Positions 12,594 through 57,729 of a stretch of DNA of 64,000 nt are shown here, piece by piece. The DNA is taken from contig CAIKUK010000014.1 in NCBI GenBank assembly GCA_903830625.1, positions 772 through 64,771 on the forward strand, in the 5' to 3' direction. Source of the DNA: Candidatus Yanofskybacteria bacterium (GTDB taxonomy: Bacteria; Patescibacteriota; Minisyncoccia; 2-02-FULL-40-12; GWA2-44-9). Each line of letters opens with the position of its first letter. Position 1 is the first letter of the stretch. The notes under the pieces were generated by a model. The model had not been told where the DNA came from. It saw only the letters and a program-made list of their open reading frames with translations, and searched no databases. The position numbers and the translations under genes are program-made.

Positions 12594-13502
12594 TTAGAAA
12601 GCTTTAAATACAACATTCTCTCCGATATCTCCCAGTTTTCCACTATAAATAGTGAGGTCGCCATTTATAGTAATTTGATATGGTCTGTATCCTAATTCTG
12701 CTAAAAAATCGACCGCCTTTAAATGGTTTGTATTATCATATCCTTTCCCCCAAATCTCCATGGCGATAATGGGTTTGCATTTCTTAAGTGTTGTTACTGC
12801 TCCCATAAGTACGTTAAATTCAGAACCTTCAACGTCGATTTTTATCAGAGTGGGGCAGATTTTTTTGCTATCACAATAATCATCTAGTGTTATCGCGGGC
12901 ACCGTTATCATTTTAAATTTCTCTTCATTTAGGACGGCAACATTCTTAAAAAAGTCTTTATTAATAGTACTTATTGATCTCCTGCTTTGAAAAAAATTAA
13001 GCTTGCCGGATTCATTTGAAACTGCACACTCGTTCAGGCATATACCGGGTAAGTCCGCATTTTTTTTCAAGATCCTGAAATGTTTTGGTGTCGGCTCGAA
13101 AGCGTGGACTTGTCCCTTGCCCGCTAATATTTTGTGTGCAAGAAGTGTATAGAAGCCATGATGAGAACCAATATCAAAAAACATATCTCCTGGCTGGAGT
13201 TGTTTAATAATAAATTTCGTGAGACATATTTCCGGGACTGAATTCAAGAAACCACCCAACCATAGATCTTGCTCGTAACTATGGATATGAATCGGGTAAC
13301 CAAAAAATGTTTTTGTCTTAACCAAAAAATATAAGCGATGCCCAGGAAACAAAACATCATATTTTCTTATAAAAACCTTGATTGGGTTCCTGGCGAGCCT
13401 AAGGAGCCTTTCCCTCCAATTTCCTTTATATAATTTTCCGTAAAACCGAATAGCTTTTTCTAGGGATTCAGATAAATTATTTGCTAATTCGATTTTATCC
13501 AT
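12594..13502 (-). CDS. FkbM family methyltransferase
   Basis: FFDIGSHHGFYTLLAH, HAFEPTP and IKIDVEGSEFNVLMGA. Confidence 0.8.
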   Translation of the reverse strand: MDKIELANNLSESLEKAIRFYGKLYKGNWRERLLRLARNPIKVFIRKYDVLFPGHRLYFLVKTKTFFGYPIHIHSYEQDLWLGGFLNSVPEICLTKFIIKQLQPGDMFFDIGSHHGFYTLLAHKILAGKGQVHAFEPTPKHFRILKKNADLPGICLNECAVSNESGKLNFFQSRRSISTINKDFFKNVAVLNEEKFKMITVPAITLDDYCDSKKICPTLIKIDVEGSEFNVLMGAVTTLKKCKPIIAMEIWGKGYDNTNHLKAVDFLAELGYRPYQITINGDLTIYSGKLGDIGENVVFKAF

Positions 13503-20611: not shown

Positions 20612-22900
20612 TTGCCAGTTATCAATCTTTGCGATATTATACCGATAATGAGCATTTCTAAAATATTAAAGTATTGTATTTATGCGGCGGCCTTAATGCC
20701 GCTGGTTATATTTTCGCAGTATCTCTCACCATTTCATTTCGGCAAGGTTATCGTGTTTAGAAGCCTGGTCGAAATTATGCTTGCCCTGTATCTTATCCTA
20801 GTTTGGCGCGATAGGTCTTATTTCCCGCGCCGAGACAAATTATTTTGGGCATTTTTAGGATTTACACTGGCATACACGCTGGCCACTTTTACCAGTGTCA
20901 ATGTTTATCAGAGTTTCTGGGGAACGCTTGAGCGGATGGGTGGAGCCTATAGTTTTTGGCACTATTTTGTCTTTTATATTATTCTCACTTCTGTTCTGCG
21001 TACCAAAAAAGATTGGGCGACATTCTTAAAAATTACTGTTGGCGTAGGCGTTTTATCCGCTTTTTATGGGTTTGGTCAACGGATTCCGGCTTGTCCTTCG
21101 GATAATCCTAATTGTTTTGGTTCATTTTTTATCGGCGGTGGCGGGCGTGATCGTATTTTTGGTACAATCGGTAATCCGGCCCTCTTTGCCGGCTATCAGA
21201 TTTTAAATGTCTTCCTGGCTCTAATTTTAGGTTTCGGAGCCTCTAAAAAAAGTGAGCGTAATTTATTATTTATCTCGGCGGGAATAATGAGCATTGCAGT
21301 ATTTATGACTGCTGTCCGCGGGTCTTTGTTGGGATTAAGTGTTGGTATGCTTACGTTCGCAGGATTATATTTTACACAGACTCATTCAAAACAAGCCCGC
21401 AAAGTATTTATTGGATTAGCGGGTCTTGCCATCGTATTTATTGGGTTCGCCTTTGCATTTAAAAACACCTCATTTGTTAAAGATTCATCATATCTTCGTC
21501 GAGTGACTGATTTTTCTTTATCAAATTACACTGTTCAAACGCGATTCTGGGCCTGGCAGGCCGGCCTGAAGGGTTGGAGCGATGGTCCGAAAACTGTGTT
21601 AGTCGGCTGGGGGCCGGAAAATTTCAATATCCCATTCTCAAAATATTTCAACCCCTTGTTTTTTAGAGGGCCTGGTTCGGAAACATTATTTGATCGTGCC
21701 CATAATATGTTTGTCGAAGTTCTCGTGACAACCGGTCTTCTTGGGTTTATTGCTTATATCGGATTATTTGTCGTGATACTAAGGTCTTTGTGGCAATTGA
21801 AAAATAAACTGGAATACCGCATCGCGGCCACTGGATTCATTGCCATGACTATCGCCTATATGATTCATAATGCTTTTATCTTTGATACTTCGGCGAATTT
21901 ATTAGTGTTCTTCAGTCTTCTTGGTTTCATTTCATTTTTAGGACAAGGAGATCAGTCTGTGTTTACTCCAAATCGTACAAATCGGCTTTCGTCTAATATT
22001 GCTTGGATTGTGGGCATTATTCTAACAATTGGTACCGGTACGCTTATATATCAAACAAATATTAAAACGGCCATTGCTAATTATGCTAGCACTCGGGGTA
22101 TTATCGCCGGCTGGAACAATGATTATAACAGCGCCGTGGCCGAGTACCAAATAGCGGTTTCGTATGATGTTGCCGGTAAATATGATTATCGAAATCGATT
22201 TGTCCAATATTTGCTTGACTATAGTTCATCCAACGGTATTGCTTCGCCGGGAATCGTTGATACGTTAAAACAAGCCATTGTTTTAGAAGAAAAGAATGCT
22301 GCCGAAAATCCTCATGATTACTTACCGGAACTTTACCTTTCACGATTAAATATTATTCTTGGGAAATCCGATCCGAAATCTCCTTATAACGATGAGGCTT
22401 TGAATCATGCCATGAAAGCTTTAAGTTATTCGCAAACGTTTGTCCGCACCTATTATGAGGTTGGTCAGGTATATTTAAACAAGAAAGATTATACGAAAGC
22501 CATAATAGCTTTTCAAAAAGCGGTGGATTTGAACCCGACCGTCGGGACTTCATATTGGTATCTTGGCGCGGTTCAAATGCAAGCCGGCCAGACTGCCAAA
22601 GCCGTAGTTAATATGCAGAAAGCTATGGATTTGGGGTATGTATTAAGTGAAAATGATAATCTTAATATGGCGACCGTCTATATAGCCCAAAATGATTTTC
22701 CGCATTTGGTAACTGTGTATGAAAATCTGGTGAAACTTCAGCCGACTAAAGCTCAATATTTAGCTTCATTGGCAGTTGCCTATGCGCGAGTCGGACGTAT
22801 TGATGACGCGGTGCATACTGCCCATCTAACTGTTCAATTGGATCCTAACTTTGGGCCAGAAGCCAGAAATTTTGTTCAGTCACTCGGTCGCCAGTGGTAA
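20612..22900 (+). CDS. O-antigen ligase/polymerase (Wzy_C)-like membrane domain fused to C-terminal TPR repeats
   Basis: A polytopic N-terminal region with a large periplasmic loop, and C-terminal TPR-like repeats (AIIAFQKAVDLNP...YWYLGAV...). Confidence 0.65.
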   Translation: MPVINLCDIIPIMSISKILKYCIYAAALMPLVIFSQYLSPFHFGKVIVFRSLVEIMLALYLILVWRDRSYFPRRDKLFWAFLGFTLAYTLATFTSVNVYQSFWGTLERMGGAYSFWHYFVFYIILTSVLRTKKDWATFLKITVGVGVLSAFYGFGQRIPACPSDNPNCFGSFFIGGGGRDRIFGTIGNPALFAGYQILNVFLALILGFGASKKSERNLLFISAGIMSIAVFMTAVRGSLLGLSVGMLTFAGLYFTQTHSKQARKVFIGLAGLAIVFIGFAFAFKNTSFVKDSSYLRRVTDFSLSNYTVQTRFWAWQAGLKGWSDGPKTVLVGWGPENFNIPFSKYFNPLFFRGPGSETLFDRAHNMFVEVLVTTGLLGFIAYIGLFVVILRSLWQLKNKLEYRIAATGFIAMTIAYMIHNAFIFDTSANLLVFFSLLGFISFLGQGDQSVFTPNRTNRLSSNIAWIVGIILTIGTGTLIYQTNIKTAIANYASTRGIIAGWNNDYNSAVAEYQIAVSYDVAGKYDYRNRFVQYLLDYSSSNGIASPGIVDTLKQAIVLEEKNAAENPHDYLPELYLSRLNIILGKSDPKSPYNDEALNHAMKALSYSQTFVRTYYEVGQVYLNKKDYTKAIIAFQKAVDLNPTVGTSYWYLGAVQMQAGQTAKAVVNMQKAMDLGYVLSENDNLNMATVYIAQNDFPHLVTVYENLVKLQPTKAQYLASLAVAYARVGRIDDAVHTAHLTVQLDPNFGPEARNFVQSLGRQW

Positions 22901-22903
22901 TAA

Positions 22904-23044
22904 CTAAAAACCGGTCGCCTCTCGGAGAAGTTTCTTGGCCGTGCTTTGTTCGGAGAAGGTTCCGATCGGCCGGGTGTAAGCCCGTTGCCGATAATTGGAA
23001 TCTCTGTAGCCGGCCTGAGAATCTCTGTGGCGACCGGTTTTTAG
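22904..23044. repeat. Large-loop hairpin element (family copy A): 9-bp GC stem ccggtcgcc/ggcgaccgg with A-run and T-run flanks enclosing a conserved interior
   Basis: The interior shares tcggagaagtttct, ccgtgcttt, gccgg and gaatctctgtggc with copy B at 38279-38354. It lies between convergent genes. Confidence 0.6.
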
Positions 23045-23056
23045 TTCGTCTAATAT

Positions 23057-23611
23057 CTATTCAATAAAGATCGCGGCAGCTACCACGGTCGTCCAAAGGC
23101 CATCCTTATTGCCTATAGCTGATTGAGTATAATTTGTTGTTTTGAATATCTGTTCTGATGCTTTGAACTGTTGCGCGCGTTCATCCCATGCTGTATCTGC
23201 GTCAAATTCAATACCCAAGGTGGTAGCAAGCATCTGCGCTGCCAGATCTTCGGCATAATCGCCGGATTTTTCATCGGTTTCTCCGAAGGGATGATGTTCT
23301 GACAGATAACCATATTGGTTTGGGTCTTGAGGGATGGCCACGCCGATCGACGCCGATATTAGTCTGTTAGGTTCATTGGTGGCGTTTCTGGCAATTACGG
23401 CATGGACTATTGAACCGGGTGGCAGTAATTTTATTCCTTCTTCTCGGGTTACCTTTTTAACATTAGGCGGGTAAATACTCGATACTGGCACAAGATTATA
23501 TGGCGCAATCCCAGCGGCCCGCAAGGCAAGTTCGAACGATGCCAGGTATTCTTTGTGGGTTCCGGCGCCTTTGGTAAAAAATATTTTAGTCGGTAACAAC
23601 TTTACAGTCAA
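23057..23611 (-). CDS. pdaD: Pyruvoyl-dependent arginine decarboxylase (PdaD/AaxB family)
   Basis: 184 aa with FFTKGAG...SSIYPP...SASIGVAIP, consistent with the PdaD family pattern. Confidence 0.65.
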
Positions 23612-23735: not shown

Positions 23736-23780
23736 CGAGATAGAAATCCCCGGCTCCAGAGCCGGGGATTTCTATCTCGA
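23736..23780. repeat. Perfect 21-bp inverted repeat hairpin
   Basis: cgagatagaaatccccggctc / gagccggggatttctatctcg; intergenic, downstream of the minus-strand sugar transferase gene. Confidence 0.6.
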
Positions 23781-25209: not shown

Positions 25210-26961
25210 ATGCAACCCATGAGTCTATTCAGTCATGTTACTACGAATAATGATATAATAAAACTGATCCTTGAACGTAAGCCCTACATGAATCACCTGT
25301 CAAAATATATAAGAATCTTTCTTATCATCGTTGCTGTTTTTTTGTTGAGCCAATCAAACGCAAACAGTGTTTGGGCGGATACTATTGGCGAACGCCACAC
25401 ATTTTTTGTGGATTCCTCCTACGATGTTACTGGCCGGACAAGCATTCCGGCTACTCTCGAATATGTGGGCGTCCATTCCTATTTCTATGTCGATGATTTG
25501 TATTTGAGTAGTCTTAATTCCCGAGAGCGTGCCATCTTTAATCAGCAAATCATTGCTTCGGCCCAAGAATTCGACGATAATATTTACCCGAAGGGAACCG
25601 CTTTTTGGGGTTCAGAAACAAATCCGGGCATTGATAACGATCCTAAAGTTACGATTCTCCTTGAGCGTCTAACCACTGGCACGGGAGGCTATTTTGACAG
25701 TGCCAATGGCTATTCAAAATCTCAAACAGATTTTACTAATCAGCGGGAAATGATTACGGCCAATATTTCATCGCTTAATACCGGCTATTTAAAAATATTT
25801 CTGGCTCATGAATTCCAACACCTGATCTCGGCTAATCAGAAAGAAATTTTGCGCAATGTCTTTGAAGATACTTGGCTTAACGAGCTCCGTTCGCAATATG
25901 CGATTACAGTCGCGGGATATAATGATGATTTTCAAAATTCGGATCTTTTACAGCGGGCGCAAACATTTGTAAACAACCCGACCGACAGTCTTACCGAATG
26001 GCCGAACACTAATCTTGATTATGCCTCGGTGACATTGTTTGGCCAGTATCTTGTCGATCGCTTTGGGCCAGGCATTCTTCAGGATACGTTACGTAGTCCG
26101 TTTGTCGGTATCAATTCCATTGATAAGTATCTGTCCGATCATCAGAACTTGGAGCGTTTTAACGACGTCTTCGCGGATTGGGAATGGACGAATTATTTTG
26201 ATAACTGTATCCCGGATATTCGATATTGCTATGTGAATCAAAATCTTCAAGCCATCCATGTTTCGTTGACCGACAATGAACAGCTGACATCCAATAATCC
26301 AAATCCGTATGTTTATTTGCTGAAACCATGGCAATCATCTTGGTATCAATTTAAGATTGATCCATCAGCTCCGGCTGGCCAAAACATAAAGATTAGCTGG
26401 CCAAGCTCCGTTTTTCAAGTTTATTATGCGGACGCATCTGGTGCTGAACGTCGTCTTGGTAATGGAGATGTTATAACTCTACCGCCGGCCGGAAGTTTTA
26501 TATTAATGCCGATCAATAGCTCGAAAACAAGCAGTTTCGGAGCCAGTGAAGCGTCTACTCAATTATCGCTATCCATCGAATATACTACCCAAACATTGAC
26601 ATCATTAGTTACCACTGTCAGCGACGGGTCGCTTATCATGCATGCCGGTACGCCGGATATCTACGTGGTCACGGGAACATATAAACGCTATCTGGCGCCA
26701 GACGTGCTCAAATTTTACGGCTTAGATGCCTCGCAGGCGGTGATGGTGACGGAAGCGGTGTTTCAATCATATATGCCCGCGAATTATATTCGCGCGGTAG
26801 ACGAGAAAAAAGTCTATGCTGTTTGGCCCGATGGCACGAAGCATTGGCTTAATATGACCGCTCAACATTTTACTGATTCTTATCGCGATTGGAATTCGGT
26901 TTTTATCGTGAACAGTCTCGAATCAAATTTTTATAAAATTGGTTCCGATATTACACAGTAA
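25210..26961 (+). CDS. Secreted hypothetical protein with an HExxH motif (putative MA-clan metallopeptidase)
   Basis: The likely true start is ATG 25288 (MNHLSKYIRIFLIIVAVFLLSQSNANSVWA signal peptide); HEFQH at LAHEFQHLI. Confidence 0.45.
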   Translation: MQPMSLFSHVTTNNDIIKLILERKPYMNHLSKYIRIFLIIVAVFLLSQSNANSVWADTIGERHTFFVDSSYDVTGRTSIPATLEYVGVHSYFYVDDLYLSSLNSRERAIFNQQIIASAQEFDDNIYPKGTAFWGSETNPGIDNDPKVTILLERLTTGTGGYFDSANGYSKSQTDFTNQREMITANISSLNTGYLKIFLAHEFQHLISANQKEILRNVFEDTWLNELRSQYAITVAGYNDDFQNSDLLQRAQTFVNNPTDSLTEWPNTNLDYASVTLFGQYLVDRFGPGILQDTLRSPFVGINSIDKYLSDHQNLERFNDVFADWEWTNYFDNCIPDIRYCYVNQNLQAIHVSLTDNEQLTSNNPNPYVYLLKPWQSSWYQFKIDPSAPAGQNIKISWPSSVFQVYYADASGAERRLGNGDVITLPPAGSFILMPINSSKTSSFGASEASTQLSLSIEYTTQTLTSLVTTVSDGSLIMHAGTPDIYVVTGTYKRYLAPDVLKFYGLDASQAVMVTEAVFQSYMPANYIRAVDEKKVYAVWPDGTKHWLNMTAQHFTDSYRDWNSVFIVNSLESNFYKIGSDITQ

Positions 26962-27258
26962 AAATATTTTTAGTTCGATGAGTTATCAACTTTTTTATTA
27001 TCAAAAAAGTTTTTTTAGTTTTAAAATTAATGCAGTGAGTAGGCAGTAGGTCGAACTGTCAAACTAAAATAATTATTTATAAGGAGGAATGGAGAGAATG
27101 ATTCTCGTCATGACGATCATTATCTCCGAAGCAAAAAATACTATGGCAAAGAAAAAGAAAGCAGCAAAGAAGAAGAAGAGAATCTAGTCATCTCAAGAGG
27201 GGCGCTCCTGCGCCCCTCTTCCTTTTTAATAATAGATAGGTAGAATTAAAAGAAACCC

Positions 27259-27585
27259 GTGAAAATAAACATTACCACTAAAAATATCACTCTGGACGAA
27301 CCCTTGCGGGTATTTATAGAACAGAAGATCGGCGGTCTTGAGAAGTTTATTCAAAAAGGCCCTGTTAGTGTGGCGGTTGAAATAGGCAAACCCTCCAAGC
27401 ATCATAAAACCGGGCCGGTATTTTATGCCGAAGCTAATTTAAAAATTGGCGGCATACTTCTGCGGGGGGAATCTACCCACAAGGACTTGCGCACTGCCAT
27501 CGGCGAAGCTCGTGACGAACTTCACGTCCAAATCAAAAAGTTCAAAGAAAAAAGAAAAGACCTTGCTCGCCAGCCCTCAAAATAA
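27259..27585 (+). CDS. hpf: Ribosome hibernation promoting factor (HPF/RaiA/YfiA family, short form)
   Basis: 108 aa with MKINITTKNITLDEPLRVFIEQK...AEANLKIGG...DLRTAIGEARDEL; GTG start. Confidence 0.75.
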   Translation: MKINITTKNITLDEPLRVFIEQKIGGLEKFIQKGPVSVAVEIGKPSKHHKTGPVFYAEANLKIGGILLRGESTHKDLRTAIGEARDELHVQIKKFKEKRKDLARQPSK

Positions 27586-27776
27586 TTTCACTTTACCTTA
27601 AATCACTCTGAAGTCGGCCCAAGATTAACACAAAGCCGACCGTCGCAGGCGGGTAGCCGAGGGCAGAGCGGAAAATTCAGCAGAATTTTAACGCGGGTCG
27701 GCGTGGGTTAGTCTTGGGTCGACTTACGTTACAAACGCTTTAAATTACTTGAAAATAGTGCTAGAATGCTAAAACT

Positions 27777-37201: not shown

Positions 37202-38266
37202 ATGACAATCAATACCTCGGTCAATATAAAGAAAACAGTCGCTGATTTGCTTAAAAACATCTCAGCCCGCAATAAGGACATCATTTCCCGTCGTTTTGGC
37301 TTGAAAACGGGCCAGAAAGAGACTTTAGAATCAATCGGCGCTTCTTATAGCATTACCCGCGAACGTGTCCGTCAGATCGAGGAATCGACCCTGTCTCAAC
37401 TCCGCCAGGCTGCAGCCGGCCATTCTGATGTCAAACGTTATATTGTTCTGGCCCGCGATATTTTGAATGAACACGGCGGAGTCATCAAAGAACGCGACCT
37501 CTTCAAATCCTTCAGTGGTCACGATGGCGATAATATCAATAACAGTTCTCTGGTCTTTCTTTTGTCGTTAAGCAACGAAATTGTCCGTTCGCCGGAAAAT
37601 GAAGATTTTAATTCTTTCTGGGCGGTTAGTAATGCCACCTTGGCTTCATTTGCCAACACTGCCAGTTCTTTGATTAAAGTTCTTGAAAAAACTGGCCGAG
37701 TCGTTTCCAATTCCGATTTCGCTTTCTTGGCCCAGAAGCATAGCGTGCCCAGTTTTTCAACCAGCGGTAAACCATTATCGGAAGCGGATATCGCTCTGGT
37801 CATGGCTGTTTCCAAGAATCTCGGTTCCAACATCTTCAACGAAGTCGGTCTGGCTTCATGGTCCGAAATCAAACCTAAAGGTGTCCGCGATAAAGCTTTC
37901 TTGGTGCTTAAGAAATCAACCAAGCCTCAGCATTTCAGCGATATCGCTTCTTTGATTAACGCTTCCGGATTCAACAATAAGAAAGCCAATGTCCAGACGG
38001 TCCATAACGAATTGATCAAAGATGACCGCTTTATCCTGGTCGGCCGAGGCATGTATGCCTTGTCTGAATGGGGCTATCGCGCCGGTACGGTCAAAGACGT
38101 CCTCGTCGACATTCTCAAATCTTCAAACAAGCCGATGGCCAAAGCCACTTTGATGGCCAAAGTCAAAGACGCACGCATGGTCAAAGAAAACACTATTTTG
38201 CTTAATCTCCAGGATTCAAAAACATTCACCAAAAACTCTGACGGCACATACAATCTCAGGAAATAA
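37202..38266 (+). CDS. Sigma-70 region 4-like HTH domain protein with a long C-terminal extension (putative transcription regulator)
   Basis: LESIGASYSITRERVRQIEESTLSQLRQ matches the sigma-70 region 4.2 pattern; no regions 2/3 are recognisable; 354 aa. Confidence 0.55.
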   Translation: MTINTSVNIKKTVADLLKNISARNKDIISRRFGLKTGQKETLESIGASYSITRERVRQIEESTLSQLRQAAAGHSDVKRYIVLARDILNEHGGVIKERDLFKSFSGHDGDNINNSSLVFLLSLSNEIVRSPENEDFNSFWAVSNATLASFANTASSLIKVLEKTGRVVSNSDFAFLAQKHSVPSFSTSGKPLSEADIALVMAVSKNLGSNIFNEVGLASWSEIKPKGVRDKAFLVLKKSTKPQHFSDIASLINASGFNNKKANVQTVHNELIKDDRFILVGRGMYALSEWGYRAGTVKDVLVDILKSSNKPMAKATLMAKVKDARMVKENTILLNLQDSKTFTKNSDGTYNLRK

Positions 38267-38278
38267 TTTCAGAATTAA

Positions 38279-38354
38279 AAGGGCCCCGCCTTTTCGGAGA
38301 AGTTTCTATCCGTGCTTTAGCCGGTTAAGAATCTCTGTGGCGGGGCCCTTTTAA
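38279..38354. repeat. Large-loop hairpin element (family copy B): 10-bp stem gggccccgcc/ggcggggccc with A4/T4 flanks and a conserved 48-nt interior
   Basis: The interior ttttcggagaagtttctatccgtgctttagccggttaagaatctctgt matches the interior motifs of copy A at 22904-23044, while the stems differ but stay complementary. Confidence 0.6.
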
Positions 38355-41280: not shown

Positions 41281-41282
41281 TC

Positions 41283-41509
41283 GCTCGGCCCAAGCCATTT
41301 GAAAGACCAGCGTCGAATCTTTCCAGCGAAGATTCGCGCCTCTCCCTCGGCCTTTCACCCAGCACCTATCTATGCCAATACTATTTCGCATCAACCGGTC
41401 GCCTAAGGCGACCGGGATAGCTCAATGGCATCTGGCCGGCTATCGCCTTACTGGAATAGCTGAAAGGCCTGCGGGGAGTCTTTCAGATGGCTTGGGTCTC
41501 GCTGTTTTT
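41283..41509 (+). other. Structured intergenic element closed by a long-range roughly 25-bp stem with a T-run; candidate ncRNA or complex terminator
   Basis: 5' gctcggcccaagccatttgaaagac pairs with 3' gtctttcagatggcttgggtctcgc, including + strand G.U wobbles. Internal hairpins include ccggtcgcc taa ggcgaccgg and gatagc...gctatc. It shares tcggcccaag/cttgggtc with the element at 27611-27725. Confidence 0.4.
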
Positions 41510-41515
41510 GCGTAT

Positions 41516-46132: not shown

Positions 46133-47058
46133 TGGACAGAAAGTTTGCCGGACTGACAATTGTCGTCGCGATTTTGGTGTTAGCTAACACCTATTTTTTT
46201 ATTACGATTTATCGAACACCGATTAGTGATCCTGGTCAGATTTTTCACGATAATCAAGCCTTTATTTTCCCGCCTAATCCGATTAGTTATTTGCCTGTTC
46301 TAAATACTTCAATGAATGAAATTACTTTAGACGCGAAGTCGGCAATTCTTTATGATACAAAATCAGACCGCAATCTCTTTGAAAAAAATATCAAAGAAAA
46401 ACTGCCCATCGCTTCGCTGACCAAAGTGATGAATGCGGTGGTGGTTTGGGAAAAATTCAGTCCCAACGACGTTGTCACTATTAAATCTTCAGCGGTCGGA
46501 GTCGACGGTCAGCGGAAAGATCTTTATGTCGACGAAACCCTATCGGTCCATAATTTAATGCAGATGATGTTCATTGAATCATCAAACGACGCCGCTTATG
46601 CTTTGCGTGATTATGCCGCCAGTCACAGTGTTGATTTGGTGGCGGAAATGAATAAGAAAGCATCGGAATTGGGAATGAGTGATACCCATTTCGTTGATCC
46701 GGCGGGGCTGGATGATACCGGCTATTCGACGGCCAGCGACCTGGTGAAAGGCGTGGCTTACGCTTTGCGCTACGATGCCATTTGGAGTCTCTCCCGAAAA
46801 TCAACGGCCACAATCATCTCAACTGATGGCAAGATTACCCATGAAATTAAGAGCACAGACCAGCTTTTGGGCGTTCTATCAGACATTGTTGGTGGAAAAA
46901 CAGGGTATACAGACAGTGCTCTCGGGTGTATGATTCTTATTGTTGATGCGCCTGACCAGGGTGATCGTATTATTGCCATCATTCTTGGTTCCCATGATCG
47001 CTTCGGCGACATGAAGAACTTGATTTCTTGGGCCAGGCGGGCATATAGATGGAATTAA
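46132..47058 (+). CDS. D-alanyl-D-alanine carboxypeptidase (serine-type, peptidase S11, DacA-like)
   Basis: SxxK (ASLTKVM), SxN (ESSNDAA), KTG (GKTGYT); N-terminal TM/signal. Confidence 0.8.
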   Translation: MDRKFAGLTIVVAILVLANTYFFITIYRTPISDPGQIFHDNQAFIFPPNPISYLPVLNTSMNEITLDAKSAILYDTKSDRNLFEKNIKEKLPIASLTKVMNAVVVWEKFSPNDVVTIKSSAVGVDGQRKDLYVDETLSVHNLMQMMFIESSNDAAYALRDYAASHSVDLVAEMNKKASELGMSDTHFVDPAGLDDTGYSTASDLVKGVAYALRYDAIWSLSRKSTATIISTDGKITHEIKSTDQLLGVLSDIVGGKTGYTDSALGCMILIVDAPDQGDRIIAIILGSHDRFGDMKNLISWARRAYRWN

Positions 47059-47197
47059 TCCCGCACATAACGAGCACCGGCAATACTACTGCGATACTAT
47101 GCGTATTTAATAATAATTAATCATACAGCACCGATAAGCTTGGCTAATACGAACAATCGTATCGCTAAAGCAGTTAGTGCTTGTTATGTGCGGGATG
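47058..47197 (+). repeat. 140-nt hairpin-ended intercistronic element, copy 1 (spans from the last A of the dacA TAA to the mraY ATG)
   Basis: About 86% identical by eye to copy 2 at 56759-56898. Terminal 19-21 nt inverted repeats atcccgcacataacgagcac / gtgcttgttatgtgcgggat. Confidence 0.8.
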
Positions 47198-49733: not shown

Positions 49734-49799
49734 GTTGAATTAACTAACTGCTTTAAAATCTAACATATGTTAGATTTTAAAGCAGTTAGTTAATTCAAC
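49734..49799. repeat. Perfect 66-bp palindrome (33-nt arms, no spacer)
   Basis: gttgaattaactaactgctttaaaatctaacat | atgttagattttaaagcagttagttaattcaac, verified base by base; located between convergent ftsW and rpsT. Confidence 0.9.
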
Positions 49800-49805
49800 A
49801 AACTT

Positions 49806-49831
49806 AAAACCCGCTTGTAAAAGCGGGTTTT
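49806..49831. terminator. Bidirectional rho-independent terminator
   Basis: aaaacccgctt gta aagcgggtttt; A-run and T-run flanks serve both the ftsW (+) and rpsT (-) transcripts. Confidence 0.7.
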
Positions 49832-49842
49832 AAGTTAATGAG

Positions 49843-56477: not shown

Positions 56478-56759
56478 ATGACCAATCCGCTTACGATGCA
56501 AGTTGAGTCCCGAATGGGGGCTGTATTCATTTCTTTATTGGCGATATTTTTTACGGGTGTTCTTTTCGTGGCTATCAAAAACTACGAGTCTGATCAAATT
56601 GTGCTGGATGCGTCCGTTACTCAAGTTAAATCAATGTCTTCAACTGAGCGTCAGATTATTGCTCAATGGATTAAAGATAATAATATTCCGGTACCCGACG
56701 GCCAAGGTTATCGTTACTTGATTCAGGAATATCCGAATCGGCCGTGGCTTAGTTATTAA
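56478..56759 (+). CDS. Hypothetical small membrane-anchored protein (93 aa)
   Basis: ATG 56478 in the same frame as the longer track ORF 56178 (whose 5' part overlaps the previous gene); one TM helix. Confidence 0.35.
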   Translation: MTNPLTMQVESRMGAVFISLLAIFFTGVLFVAIKNYESDQIVLDASVTQVKSMSSTERQIIAQWIKDNNIPVPDGQGYRYLIQEYPNRPWLSY

Positions 56760-56898
56760 TCCCGCACATAACAAGCACTGGCAATACTACTGCGTCACTA
56801 TGCGGATATAAATAATATTAATCATACAGCACTGATAAGCTTGGATAATACATAAAATCGTATTGCTCAAGCAGTTGGTGCTTGTTATGTGCGGGATG
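56759..56898 (+). repeat. 140-nt hairpin-ended intercistronic element, copy 2 (spans TAA of the upstream ORF to the ATG of the presenilin-like protease gene)
   Basis: Same length and termini as copy 1 at 47058-47197, with about 20 substitutions. Confidence 0.8.
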
Positions 56899-57729
56899 AA
56901 AATTCAGCCCAATCTTTTTCTGAAAGAAGCGTTAATGTTCGGCGGGACTTTCGCTCTGGGTTTGTTTGTGGCTTATCAATATGTGATTCAGCTCCCAAAC
57001 GTAGAAATTATCCAACCCTCGAACATCACTACTGGAGATATAGTTGGTTTTATTCTAATATTCGTGGCAGTTTGGTTGGTTAGTCGTATTCGGCAGTTAT
57101 CAAGTTGGGTGTTCTGGATATTCATTTCTATTTTAATTCTTGCCGGTTCCCAAATTGTGATTGCTTCCGTGGCGCCGTTCCCACTAGATATTATCGGAAG
57201 CCTGCTGATTTTGGCCACTTTTCTTGTTGCCCATACTGTTATTACGCACGATATCGCCATTGCTTTGGGTATCGCCGGTCTTGGCGCTGCTGTCGGCATT
57301 ATTATTACACCTACAGTCGGCGTCGTGGTTCTGGTCCTGATGTCCTTCTATGATATTATTGCCGTATATAAGACCCGGCATATGGTCCGGATTGCTGAAA
57401 GTATGATTCGTTCTGGCGCCGTATTCGGTTTTATTATTCCGCCCAGTACTGAACTTTTTATGGCTTCGCGGCATGAGGCCAAATCTCGAATCGGAACTGA
57501 TTTTATGATTTTGGGTTCGGGTGATATTGGTTTGCCTTTAATTTTTATCAGTTCTTTGGTCCGCCAATCTTTGCCTGAAGCGATTATCGTCGCTTGTTTC
57601 GCCATGCTCGGACTGCTTTTAACTCATATATTGTTTGTCAGCCAGACTAAACGTCAACCGATGGCCGCGTTGCCGCCGATTGCGACGATGACCCTAATCG
57701 GGTATGCCGTGGCATTGGTGATTATATAA
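56896..57729 (+). CDS. Presenilin/signal-peptide-peptidase-like GxGD intramembrane aspartyl protease (A22-like)
   Basis: YD (LMSFYDIIAVY), GxGD (LGSGDIGLP) and PAL (MAALPP) motifs in the canonical order within a roughly 9-TM protein; an alternative start is ATG 56935. Confidence 0.6.
   Translation: MKIQPNLFLKEALMFGGTFALGLFVAYQYVIQLPNVEIIQPSNITTGDIVGFILIFVAVWLVSRIRQLSSWVFWIFISILILAGSQIVIASVAPFPLDIIGSLLILATFLVAHTVITHDIAIALGIAGLGAAVGIIITPTVGVVVLVLMSFYDIIAVYKTRHMVRIAESMIRSGAVFGFIIPPSTELFMASRHEAKSRIGTDFMILGSGDIGLPLIFISSLVRQSLPEAIIVACFAMLGLLLTHILFVSQTKRQPMAALPPIATMTLIGYAVALVII

Follow-up and report, generated by a model that had tools for sequence, protein, structure and literature searches.

A 45-66-nt palindromic module in terminator loops, RNA genes and protein genes of Patescibacteria is likely a non-autonomous mobile element

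The two large-loop hairpins considered here, elements A (22904-23044) and B (38279-38354), lie at gene ends in a 64,000-nt stretch of contig CAIKUK010000014.1 from a Candidatus Yanofskybacteria bacterium; we refer to this whole stretch as the window. We consider it likely that A and B are terminators whose apical loops have been invaded by a 45-66-nt non-autonomous mobile palindromic element, or module, that is widespread in Patescibacteria, the candidate phyla radiation (CPR). As is typical of small palindromic mobile elements, copies of the module are dispersed among unrelated flanks and are present in some genomes but absent from others at orthologous sites. Loci retrieved from genomes and metagenomes are designated by L-numbers (L005, L023 and so on).

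Two terminators of the window house copies of one module

In element A, an A-run (22906-22910) and a stem arm, CCGGTCGCC (22911-22919), make up the 5' side (22906-22919), and a second arm, GGCGACCGG (23029-23037), followed by a T-run (23038-23042), makes up the 3' side (23029-23042), with the two arms pairing across 109 nt. The arms of element B pair across 48 nt: the A-run at 38277-38280 and the arm GGGCCCCGCC at 38281-38290 (5' side, 38277-38290) face the arm GGCGGGGCCC at 38339-38348 and the T-run at 38349-38352 (3' side, 38339-38352). These coordinates, all read from the + strand sequence, bear out the A-run, 9-10-bp GC stem and T-run of bidirectional-terminator shape that a first-pass annotation of the window had described. 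Terminator A starts 6 nt past the stop codon of a Wzy_C/TPR gene (20612-22900), and the stop of a convergent pyruvoyl-arginine-decarboxylase (PvlArgDC) gene on the minus strand (23057-23611) falls just beyond it; terminator B is downstream of a sigma-70-r4/HARE-HTH gene (37202-38266). With a GC-rich stem, a T-run at a gene end and an upstream A-run, the outer part of each element has the predicted form of an intrinsic (Rho-independent) bidirectional terminator, whereas the 109-nt and 48-nt ‘loops’ are inserted elements and not terminator parts.

The long interiors do have motifs in common, as claimed at first pass. TCGGAGAAGTTTCT matches exactly at 22922 and 38294, with a two-mismatch copy at 22950, and GAATCTCTGTGGC matches exactly at 23019 and 38329, with a one-mismatch copy at 22998; elsewhere in the 64 kb nothing came closer than 2-3 mismatches (TCGGAGAAGTTTCT, none below 3). 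Folding was far more stable than in shuffled controls for A (-79.2 kcal/mol, z -9.6) and for B (-40.4 kcal/mol, z -5.4), and in both the + strand fold is the more stable one owing to G.U pairs.

The loop of terminator B holds a single type-1 module on the + strand (38292-38338), consisting of ‘TT’ and a 45-nt core (38294-38338), which matched covariance model (CM) R1 at 68.8 bits. The loop of terminator A likewise holds a + strand type-1 module (22920-23028), consisting of ‘TC’ and the core TCGGAGAAGTTTCT...AGAATCTCTGT (22922-23028), which the same model matched over 22919-23031 at 61.4 bits. Within it, sequence and fold delimit a second, type-2 module on the + strand (22948-23007), made up of ‘GT’ and the core TCGGAGAAGGTTCC...AAT-TGGAATCTCTGT (22950-23007). 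This copy splits the GC-UUUA-GC apical loop of the type-1 copy between U3 and A4, and excising 22948-23007 leaves a canonical 47-nt type-1 core. By these boundaries, element A is a copy of the second subtype nested in the apical loop of a B-like type-1 copy, and not, as had been suggested, a partial duplication of B’s interior. The nested subtype also occurs in L009, L015, L026, L063 and other loci.

Orthologous sites in close relatives are empty

Hairpins without the insert, which the first-pass annotation had proposed as a check, were found at the orthologous sites of both A and B. At site A, L023 has the same convergent gene pair (decarboxylase 91% identical) separated by actaaaaCGAGGGC-gtcg-GCCCTCGttttagtt, and L024 (81% identical) has a different plain hairpin and no module; these empty orthologs are plain tetra- or penta-loop terminators whose A/T-run flanks are as in the window. 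At site B, the spacer measures 69-70 nt in L110, L111 and L113 (relatives 92, 90 and 81% identical) versus 121 nt in the window, and is thus 51 nt shorter. L111 reads AAAAGGGCCCCGC-TTTAT-CGGGGCTCTTTT, with a stem, GGGCCCCGC, identical to that of B and a 5-nt loop, while L110 and L113 have plain hairpins without the module. Taking both sites together, the loops of the relatives’ plain terminators are 4-6 nt long.

The differing outer stems of A and B had been taken as covariation within one structured RNA. The plain hairpins at orthologous sites instead argue that A and B are two unrelated, pre-existing intrinsic terminators of bidirectional type, each of which received a copy of the element. 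Covariation is present, but it lies in the element’s own inner stem and not in the outer stems.

Presence or absence of the module differs between relatives at ~90% protein identity, and filled and empty orthologs were found for five protein genes in addition to sites A and B. One empty target lies in the window itself, where the 583-aa open reading frame (ORF) at 25210-26961 is the empty ortholog of a module-bearing gene for a 579-aa protein. L086 carries an intact type-1 copy exactly at this site (WPE-LGEVSVGGALARPRISV-GTKHW); in the window, WPD is followed directly by GTKHW, and ortholog comparison places the empty target at 26824-26838 on the + strand (tgg ccc gat ggc acg, W P D G T). Decayed copies, which are expected of selfish DNA, were seen in L008 (at 2084), L024 and L015 (at 1641).

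The same site in L024 (codons around ‘VYAVWPEQGEGSRGGTSTGIASGTKHW’) holds a decayed type-2-like copy; it is empty in L021 and L022, as in the window. Compared by sequence, the occupants of L024 and L086 indicate that one site was used repeatedly or that a copy already there was replaced.

The module is inserted as a precise unit without duplication

Removing the core together with the dinucleotide before it restored the ortholog peptide exactly in all four genes with empty orthologs so compared (VYAVWPDGTKHW, VWPGKVTVV, ERIKPDGIVLGIE and ALQKARQQS), and no other boundary model fitted all four. No target-site duplication or direct repeat was found at the junctions in the ortholog comparisons. 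Across 65 independent sites, position -2 was K (G or T) in 65 and position -1 was C in 53, while position +2 was G in 57 and position +1 was mostly A or C. The unit is therefore KC plus the core, inserted 5' of M-G.

Non-coding sites tend to be palindromic already: their flank complementarity was 4.98 against 3.31 when permuted, a value reached in 0 of 300 permutations, and an uninterrupted flanking stem of at least 5 bp was present at ~17 of 55 independent sites. We saw no sign of hidden hairpins at coding targets, where flank complementarity was 3.6 against 3.42, not above chance. Orientation was mixed, with 8 sense and 7 antisense copies in the spacers of co-directional genes, which speaks against the transcribed structured-RNA family proposed at first pass.

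A conserved base helix carries a co-varying interior

The element is 45-66 nt long and begins with the dinucleotide K-C. The base helix CGGAGA/UCUCUG is common to all copies; of 84 distinct rows, 81 have G.U as its second pair and 3 have G-C. Above this helix lie a 3-nt bulge, A-G-K, and a 4-bp helix, UUCY/RGAA, in which U-A and C-G were exchanged 25 times. The distal hairpin is variable and co-varying; type 1 has a variable stem, a bulged U and GC-UUUA-GC (occasionally GCAA or GCAC-AAUA-GUGC), and in type 2 the stem is longer and its 3' strand has an AAU bulge. In the 84 distinct rows, 97.1% of cells were paired, against 42-63% in slid controls, and 10 of 18 pairs showed double changes. Compensatory cells numbered 149 against 51 in shuffles, with 0 of 500 shuffles reaching 149, in an alignment fitted to the CM, which favours structure. 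The invariance of the base helix is partly imposed by our exact-pattern scans; the pattern used for the metagenomes permitted C at the wobble, and C was still rare.

In 23 of 25 copies, the + strand folded more stably as RNA than the - strand did. Together, the conserved asymmetry (wobble and bulge) and the co-varying interior show that the folded single strand matters, and this is most economically explained by a requirement of mobilisation, with selection acting on active source lineages.

Known motifs did not account for the fold. On inspection, the base helix did not fit a k-turn, sarcin-ricin or tetraloop-receptor reading, with no tandem G.A pairs after the bulge and a third bulge nucleotide that is G or U. 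We also rejected an anticodon-loop mimic for GUGCUUUAGCC; the GCAA and extended GCAC-AAUA-GUGC variants retain the stem, not the loop.

The family is found in Patescibacteria

We scanned one genome for each of 185,579 species with the exact pattern TCGGAGAAGKTTCY-N15-45-GAATCTCTGT and obtained 19 loci in 10 CPR metagenome-assembled genomes (MAGs), none of which has more than 7 copies; the record titles all name Patescibacteria, Yanofskybacteria or Saccharibacteria, and none of these species genomes had a match outside the CPR. The window's own organism, going by how its best protein homologs are named, is a Parcubacteria/Paceibacteria relative of Yanofsky-, Colwell- and Nomurabacteria. A metagenome collection yielded 84 further loci, mostly from groundwater and with many from the Hainich wells, and a scan of IMG/VR viral sequences gave no match. 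After removal of duplicates there were 84 sites and 59 distinct modules, all in Patescibacteria MAGs or metagenomes. A single 47-nt module was found at 11 sites whose flanks are unrelated; the labels of these records include Saccharibacteria, Yanofskybacteria and other Patescibacteria. In L018, two copies 500 nt apart have an identical, unusual interior but differ in their outer stems, which shows that what is copied is the module and not the outer hairpin.

With a covariance model derived from type-1 copies we recovered additional copies with divergent cores, bringing the total to 111 matches. The first-pass idea that such a model would uncover more of the family thus held for the loci as a whole and failed for the 64-kb window, where neither the CM search nor a loose pattern search gave anything beyond three modules at two sites. 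No Rfam 15 family matched the element at the gathering threshold, in the window (A and B included, the comparison proposed at first pass) or in the loci. When the search was relaxed to E<=5, the sole overlap was Plastid-psbJ-5 over B, on both strands, at 28.6 and 25.7 bits (gathering score 53.1), a match of generic-hairpin type; the other Rfam matches in the window and loci were tRNAs, a tmRNA and a sub-threshold RNase P RNA. Full-text literature searches turned up no description of the element.

Protein genes carry the module in frame

Copies reside in grpE, typA/bipA, rsmH, murB, a GT4 glycosyltransferase gene, sua5/yrdC, a NUDIX gene, pth and the gene for the 579-aa protein, and Pfam confirmed all of these hosts except the last. 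At 10 of 10 independent sites in coding sequences, the insert length was divisible by three (p ~2e-5), while non-coding inserts were spread 19/21/15 over residue classes 0/1/2 mod 3. The coding copies keep the reading frame, contain no stops and differ in length by multiples of three; they are therefore translated, not spliced out. In the sense orientation, the added peptide reads LGE[GV]S...[RG]ISV, and in the antisense orientation, found in at least five genes (typA, rsmH, murB, NUDIX and pth), it reads TEI[LP]...E[TP]SPS. The first-pass suggestion of a small insertion that targets hairpin loops is directly borne out at A and B, whose orthologs have plain hairpins, and is too narrow for the family, which is not limited to loops.

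Non-coding copies sit at hairpin tips and in structural RNAs

In non-coding DNA, copies reside at the tips of terminator-like hairpins. L005 has one at the P3 tip of a class-A RNase P RNA, where the module is set between ctccgct-TC and C-agcggag, followed by GAGGAAAGUCC. This RNA scored 57.9 bits (E 7e-17), below the gathering score of 100. CPR RNase P RNAs are reported to need lowered thresholds and to have extended helices (PMC8172020), and the low score of L005 fits those remarks.

The module also forms one arm of a recurrent structured non-coding locus (L008 2035-2175 on the minus strand, L009 930-1075, L019 5970-6110, L032, L043 and L102) whose consensus is ...GGUAGCCGGC-module-AG..GAGC.AAAA.UUCAGUAGAAUUUUU, in which the module is type 1 or type 2 depending on the lineage, and for which Rfam gave no match. 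The module arm adjoins a conserved AAAAAUUC-AGUA-GAAUUUUU hairpin, one Yanofskybacteria MAG has two identical copies of the locus, and the L008 copy lies upstream of an apparently RecR-like ORF, as read from its translation.

Two other arrangements were observed. In the unrelated loci L011 (1158-1274) and L051 (~2005-2090), an opposite-strand module begins at a tRNA's discriminator base, so that the antisense module makes up the 3' trailer of that tRNA. In L053, a structured non-coding direct repeat with the module (146-183 nt; 2737-2882 and 12623-12768) brackets a 9.9-kb segment of a 240-kb contig, and L034 is this same segment assembled separately, with the repeat at its ends. From its layout, this arrangement may be an integrated element or a duplicated non-coding RNA (ncRNA) gene.

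How the module may be mobilised

The mixed orientation, the antisense copies in genes, the close relatives without the module and the decayed copies together argue that the element is not primarily a transcribed RNA class. It arrives as a precise unit directly 5' of M-G, in either orientation and without duplication. Copies are retained at places that can bear an additional segment, be it self-folding or in frame: at the tips of terminators, at helix tips of structural RNAs and in proteins. At 45-66 nt the element is too small to encode an enzyme; we infer that one acting in trans would recognise the folded base helix on one strand and mobilise it, possibly through single-stranded DNA (ssDNA), double-stranded DNA ends or template switching. 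For the host, the two window copies are probably near-neutral extensions of hairpins, with termination intact.

Several observations weigh against this reading. In ~0.83 Mb of flanking DNA we found no transposase and no parent insertion sequence (IS) with matching ends, even when searching for solo ends. The two Y1_Tnp genes in the loci, which are IS200-like or resemble RAYTs (transposases associated with repetitive extragenic palindromic, or REP, sequences), are flanked by palindromes other than the module. Orientation showed no bias toward the G-rich strand (14/36, p = 0.24; GC skew is a weak proxy, applied here to 6-14-kb loci and the 64-kb window), so that, by this weak proxy, the lagging-strand-template signature of IS200/IS605-type elements is absent. 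The grpE copies of L063 and L079 are identical 55-nt modules though the proteins are only ~65% identical, and a module more conserved than its flanks needs selection on the copy, re-insertion or gene conversion. Finally, part of the core's conservation stems from ascertainment by the exact-pattern scans.

Clustering of the neighbouring genes revealed no recurrent mobiliser, only syntenic housekeeping genes, of which the family-4 uracil-DNA glycosylase was the commonest. In 10 loci (L003, L026, L030, L034, L038, L045 and others) that gene is no more than a few kb from the module, much of this being shared synteny. Patescibacteria are reported to lack group II introns and hence the reverse transcriptases of such introns (PMC13011429). 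The leading candidate mechanisms are an HUH-type enzyme and template switching.

Movement of the module as a REP or REPIN (a paired REP) by a RAYT, a Y1 HUH transposase acting on an ssDNA hairpin, is possible, and we put it forward tentatively. The palindrome of the module is imperfect, having bulges that are conserved and a G.T wobble on one strand, and its insertion 5' of M-G is precise and sequence-specific without duplication, a mode known for IS200/IS605-family elements. REPs are likewise short imperfect palindromes with strand-specific irregularities that often lie at gene ends, as or within terminator-like hairpins, and leave no target duplication. CPR genomes, moreover, encode Y1_Tnp proteins flanked by REP-like palindromes. 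We found two such genes with a RAYT query, and Pfam confirmed both matches: L064 (10521-11294) has perfect REP-like palindromes TGTAAAGATGCCCATTACA on both sides of the gene, and L087 (2148-2889) has TACAAGGTT/AACCTTGTA. From these flanks, REP-RAYT systems appear to exist in CPR. However, neither gene is flanked by our module, as a cognate RAYT would be by its own repeats, and no Y1_Tnp gene was found next to a copy. Whereas REPs are extragenic, high-copy and species-specific and flank their RAYT, the module is often found inside genes, is low-copy, at ~4-8 exact-pattern copies per MAG, and is nearly identical across distant CPR lineages. It also lacks a 5' GTAG-type tetranucleotide, and the absence of strand bias relative to GC skew counts against a RAYT as well.

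More speculatively, the mechanism could be new to bacteria: a structure-guided, duplication-free insertion of hairpins 5' of M-G that re-writes occupied sites and crosses CPR classes, with the module perhaps co-opted as an RNA handle in RNase P RNA and an ncRNA. We think this doubtful; if true, no ‘homing hairpin’ smaller than the module would be known, and the module would mark CPR gene flow.

Spread or homogenisation without any dedicated transposase, through template switching during replication or through gene conversion, in either case between GC-rich palindromes, is unlikely. It would account for the lack of a mobilising gene and of target duplications, for the enrichment at pre-existing palindromes and for identical modules in diverged orthologs. 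It would also suit gene sites at which relatives carry different module variants, as in the 583-aa gene (L086 versus L024) and in typA, where L017 and L035 have unrelated module interiors in flanks that are 67-80% identical; judged by their sequences, typA and grpE look re-written. Against it, coding targets show no flank complementarity above chance, nucleotide-exact boundaries at unrelated sites are hard to obtain through microhomology, and the conserved K-C / M-G junction resembles the specificity of an enzyme.

We regard as improbable that the module is instead a functional RNA ‘handle’, a protein-binding or tertiary-structure motif with a role like that of k-turn/L7Ae, kept by selection in a large number of transcripts (mRNA 3' ends, RNase P RNA, other ncRNAs), its spread being only secondary. 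Such a role would explain the sequence-conserved helix with its fixed 3-nt bulge and retained G.U wobble, the greater stability of the + strand fold, the way the module is built as an integral hairpin into RNase P RNA P3 and into the recurrent structured locus, and its conservation, at times, beyond that of its flanks. Yet the orientation in unambiguous tandem-gene spacers is random, at least five protein genes carry the module antisense, close relatives have the same terminators without it and some copies have decayed. With ~3 modules per 64 kb, moreover, most terminators lack one. The module has the compensatory changes of a structured-RNA family, but neither a consistent orientation nor a match to a curated family.

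That the module is a DNA uptake sequence of naturally competent CPR, enriched at terminators as in Neisseria and Haemophilus, is highly improbable. Known uptake sequences are ~20-fold denser, and the module is a discrete unit with exact boundaries and a co-varying interior that most window terminators lack. Counting for it are a core conserved across CPR classes, its presence in terminators and coding DNA alike, and the natural transformability of Saccharibacteria (PMC10633639). Excision from RNA as a bulge-helix-bulge (BHB) intron, like the substrates of archaeal splicing endonuclease, is next to impossible: the predicted type-2 geometry matches hBHBh' (AGG bulge, UUCC/GGAA helix and AAU bulge, with the bulges on opposite strands), but type 1 has no second 3-nt bulge, half of the coding copies are antisense to the mRNA, the frame statistics of the ten coding sites contradict splicing, and only Archaea and Eukarya are reported to have BHB introns (PMC13011429).

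Relation to known palindromic repeats

As a mobile palindromic element, the module has its closest counterparts in REPs and in the Rickettsia palindromic elements (RPEs), whose in-frame residence in proteins was reportedly described by Ogata et al. in 2000. RPEs are repeated palindromic selfish elements that occur in intergenic DNA and RNA genes and, in frame, in many unrelated housekeeping proteins, to which they add a conserved peptide (PMC10969869). The module likewise lies in frame in unrelated protein genes (10/10), where it adds a conserved peptide, and also in RNA genes and spacers. RPEs, however, measure ~100-150 bp and occur only in Rickettsia, whereas the module measures 45-66 nt and occurs in several CPR classes; it also favours hairpin tips, nests in its own loop and has a defined KC+core junction 5' of M-G without duplication. 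The module works like an RPE but is not classed as one: all its matches are in Patescibacteria-type records, and host range, not sequence comparison, sets it apart.

Bacterial MITEs (miniature transposable elements with inverted repeats) and terminator-like repeats (Correia, ERIC, BOX/RUP/SPRITE) include some that resemble terminators and some that insert into each other (PMC10969869). The module resembles these in being small and non-autonomous and in forming stable stem-loops in transcripts, but it is 2-5 times smaller and shows neither the terminal inverted repeats matching a parent IS nor the target-site duplications of MITEs. Its arms are imperfect inverted repeats, and no solo ends bracketing a larger element occurred in 0.83 Mb. 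Mitochondrial mobile GC clusters, double-hairpin elements and cyanobacterial small dispersed repeats are tiny non-coding hairpins that invade intergenic DNA, rRNA or structural-RNA genes and each other. They are, like the module, very small palindromes without coding capacity, a likeness of description; their hosts are organelles or cyanobacteria, and in-frame residence in many housekeeping proteins is not their hallmark. What distinguishes the module is its very small size, its near-identity across CPR classes, its preference for hairpin tips, including its own loop, and its defined, duplication-free junction.

Other features of the window

The stem of terminator A recurs, as noted at first pass, in a plain tri-loop hairpin, CCGGTCGCC-taa-GGCGACCGG (41395-41415, + strand, 9-bp stem), within the 41283-41509 element. 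No other retrieved locus had this CCGGTCGCC stem. The hairpin lies in a 230-nt spacer (41281-41512) after a TraG/VirD4-like gene; the spacer has a closed multi-hairpin fold (-110.6 kcal/mol, z -8.1) with a terminal U-run and no Rfam match, and by this predicted fold it is a candidate ncRNA.

Another repeat, ~138 nt long, forms a second family unrelated to the module; it is bounded by 20-bp terminal inverted repeats, ATCCCGCACATAACAAGCAC...GTGCTTGTTATGTGCGGGAT, and occurs at 47058-47196 and 56756-56900 of the window and in L112 (3637-3776). Its copies are 85% alike, and all three end ...GCGGGATG exactly at the start of the downstream ORF, a position from which the repeat may supply or abut the start codon and 5' untranslated region.

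A perfect 66-nt palindrome (33+33 nt, no spacer) spans 49734-49799 and is followed by a 16-bp terminator-like hairpin (49801-49836). Between the decarboxylase gene and a sugar-transferase gene, 23736-23779 forms a perfect 21-bp hairpin with a 2-nt loop, CGAGATAGAAATCCCCGGCTC-ca-GAGCCGGGGATTTCTATCTCG, which gave sub-threshold matches to miRNA hairpin models on both strands. The stretch from 26962 to 27776 is 815 nt without an ORF of at least 120 aa, unusually long for a compact genome, and has a strong terminator inside (27195-27220).

Consequences for CPR biology

If the module is the mobile palindromic element that we propose, then ultra-reduced CPR genomes, usually called poor in mobile DNA, carry a selfish hairpin that crosses lineages and alters terminators, the RNase P ribozyme and essential proteins (GrpE, BipA, RsmH, MurB and Pth). 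It would account for some of the ‘extended helices’ and sub-threshold CM scores of CPR structural RNAs, as in the RNase P RNA of L005, and for unexplained inserts of 16-22 residues in CPR proteins; terminator and ncRNA predictors and protein aligners should accordingly mask it in annotation. Since different classes share identical modules of 47 nt and 55 nt, the module could serve as a precise marker of horizontal exchange among CPR, and its clean junction (KC+core, no duplication, 5' of M-G) makes mobilisation experimentally approachable in cultivable Saccharibacteria.

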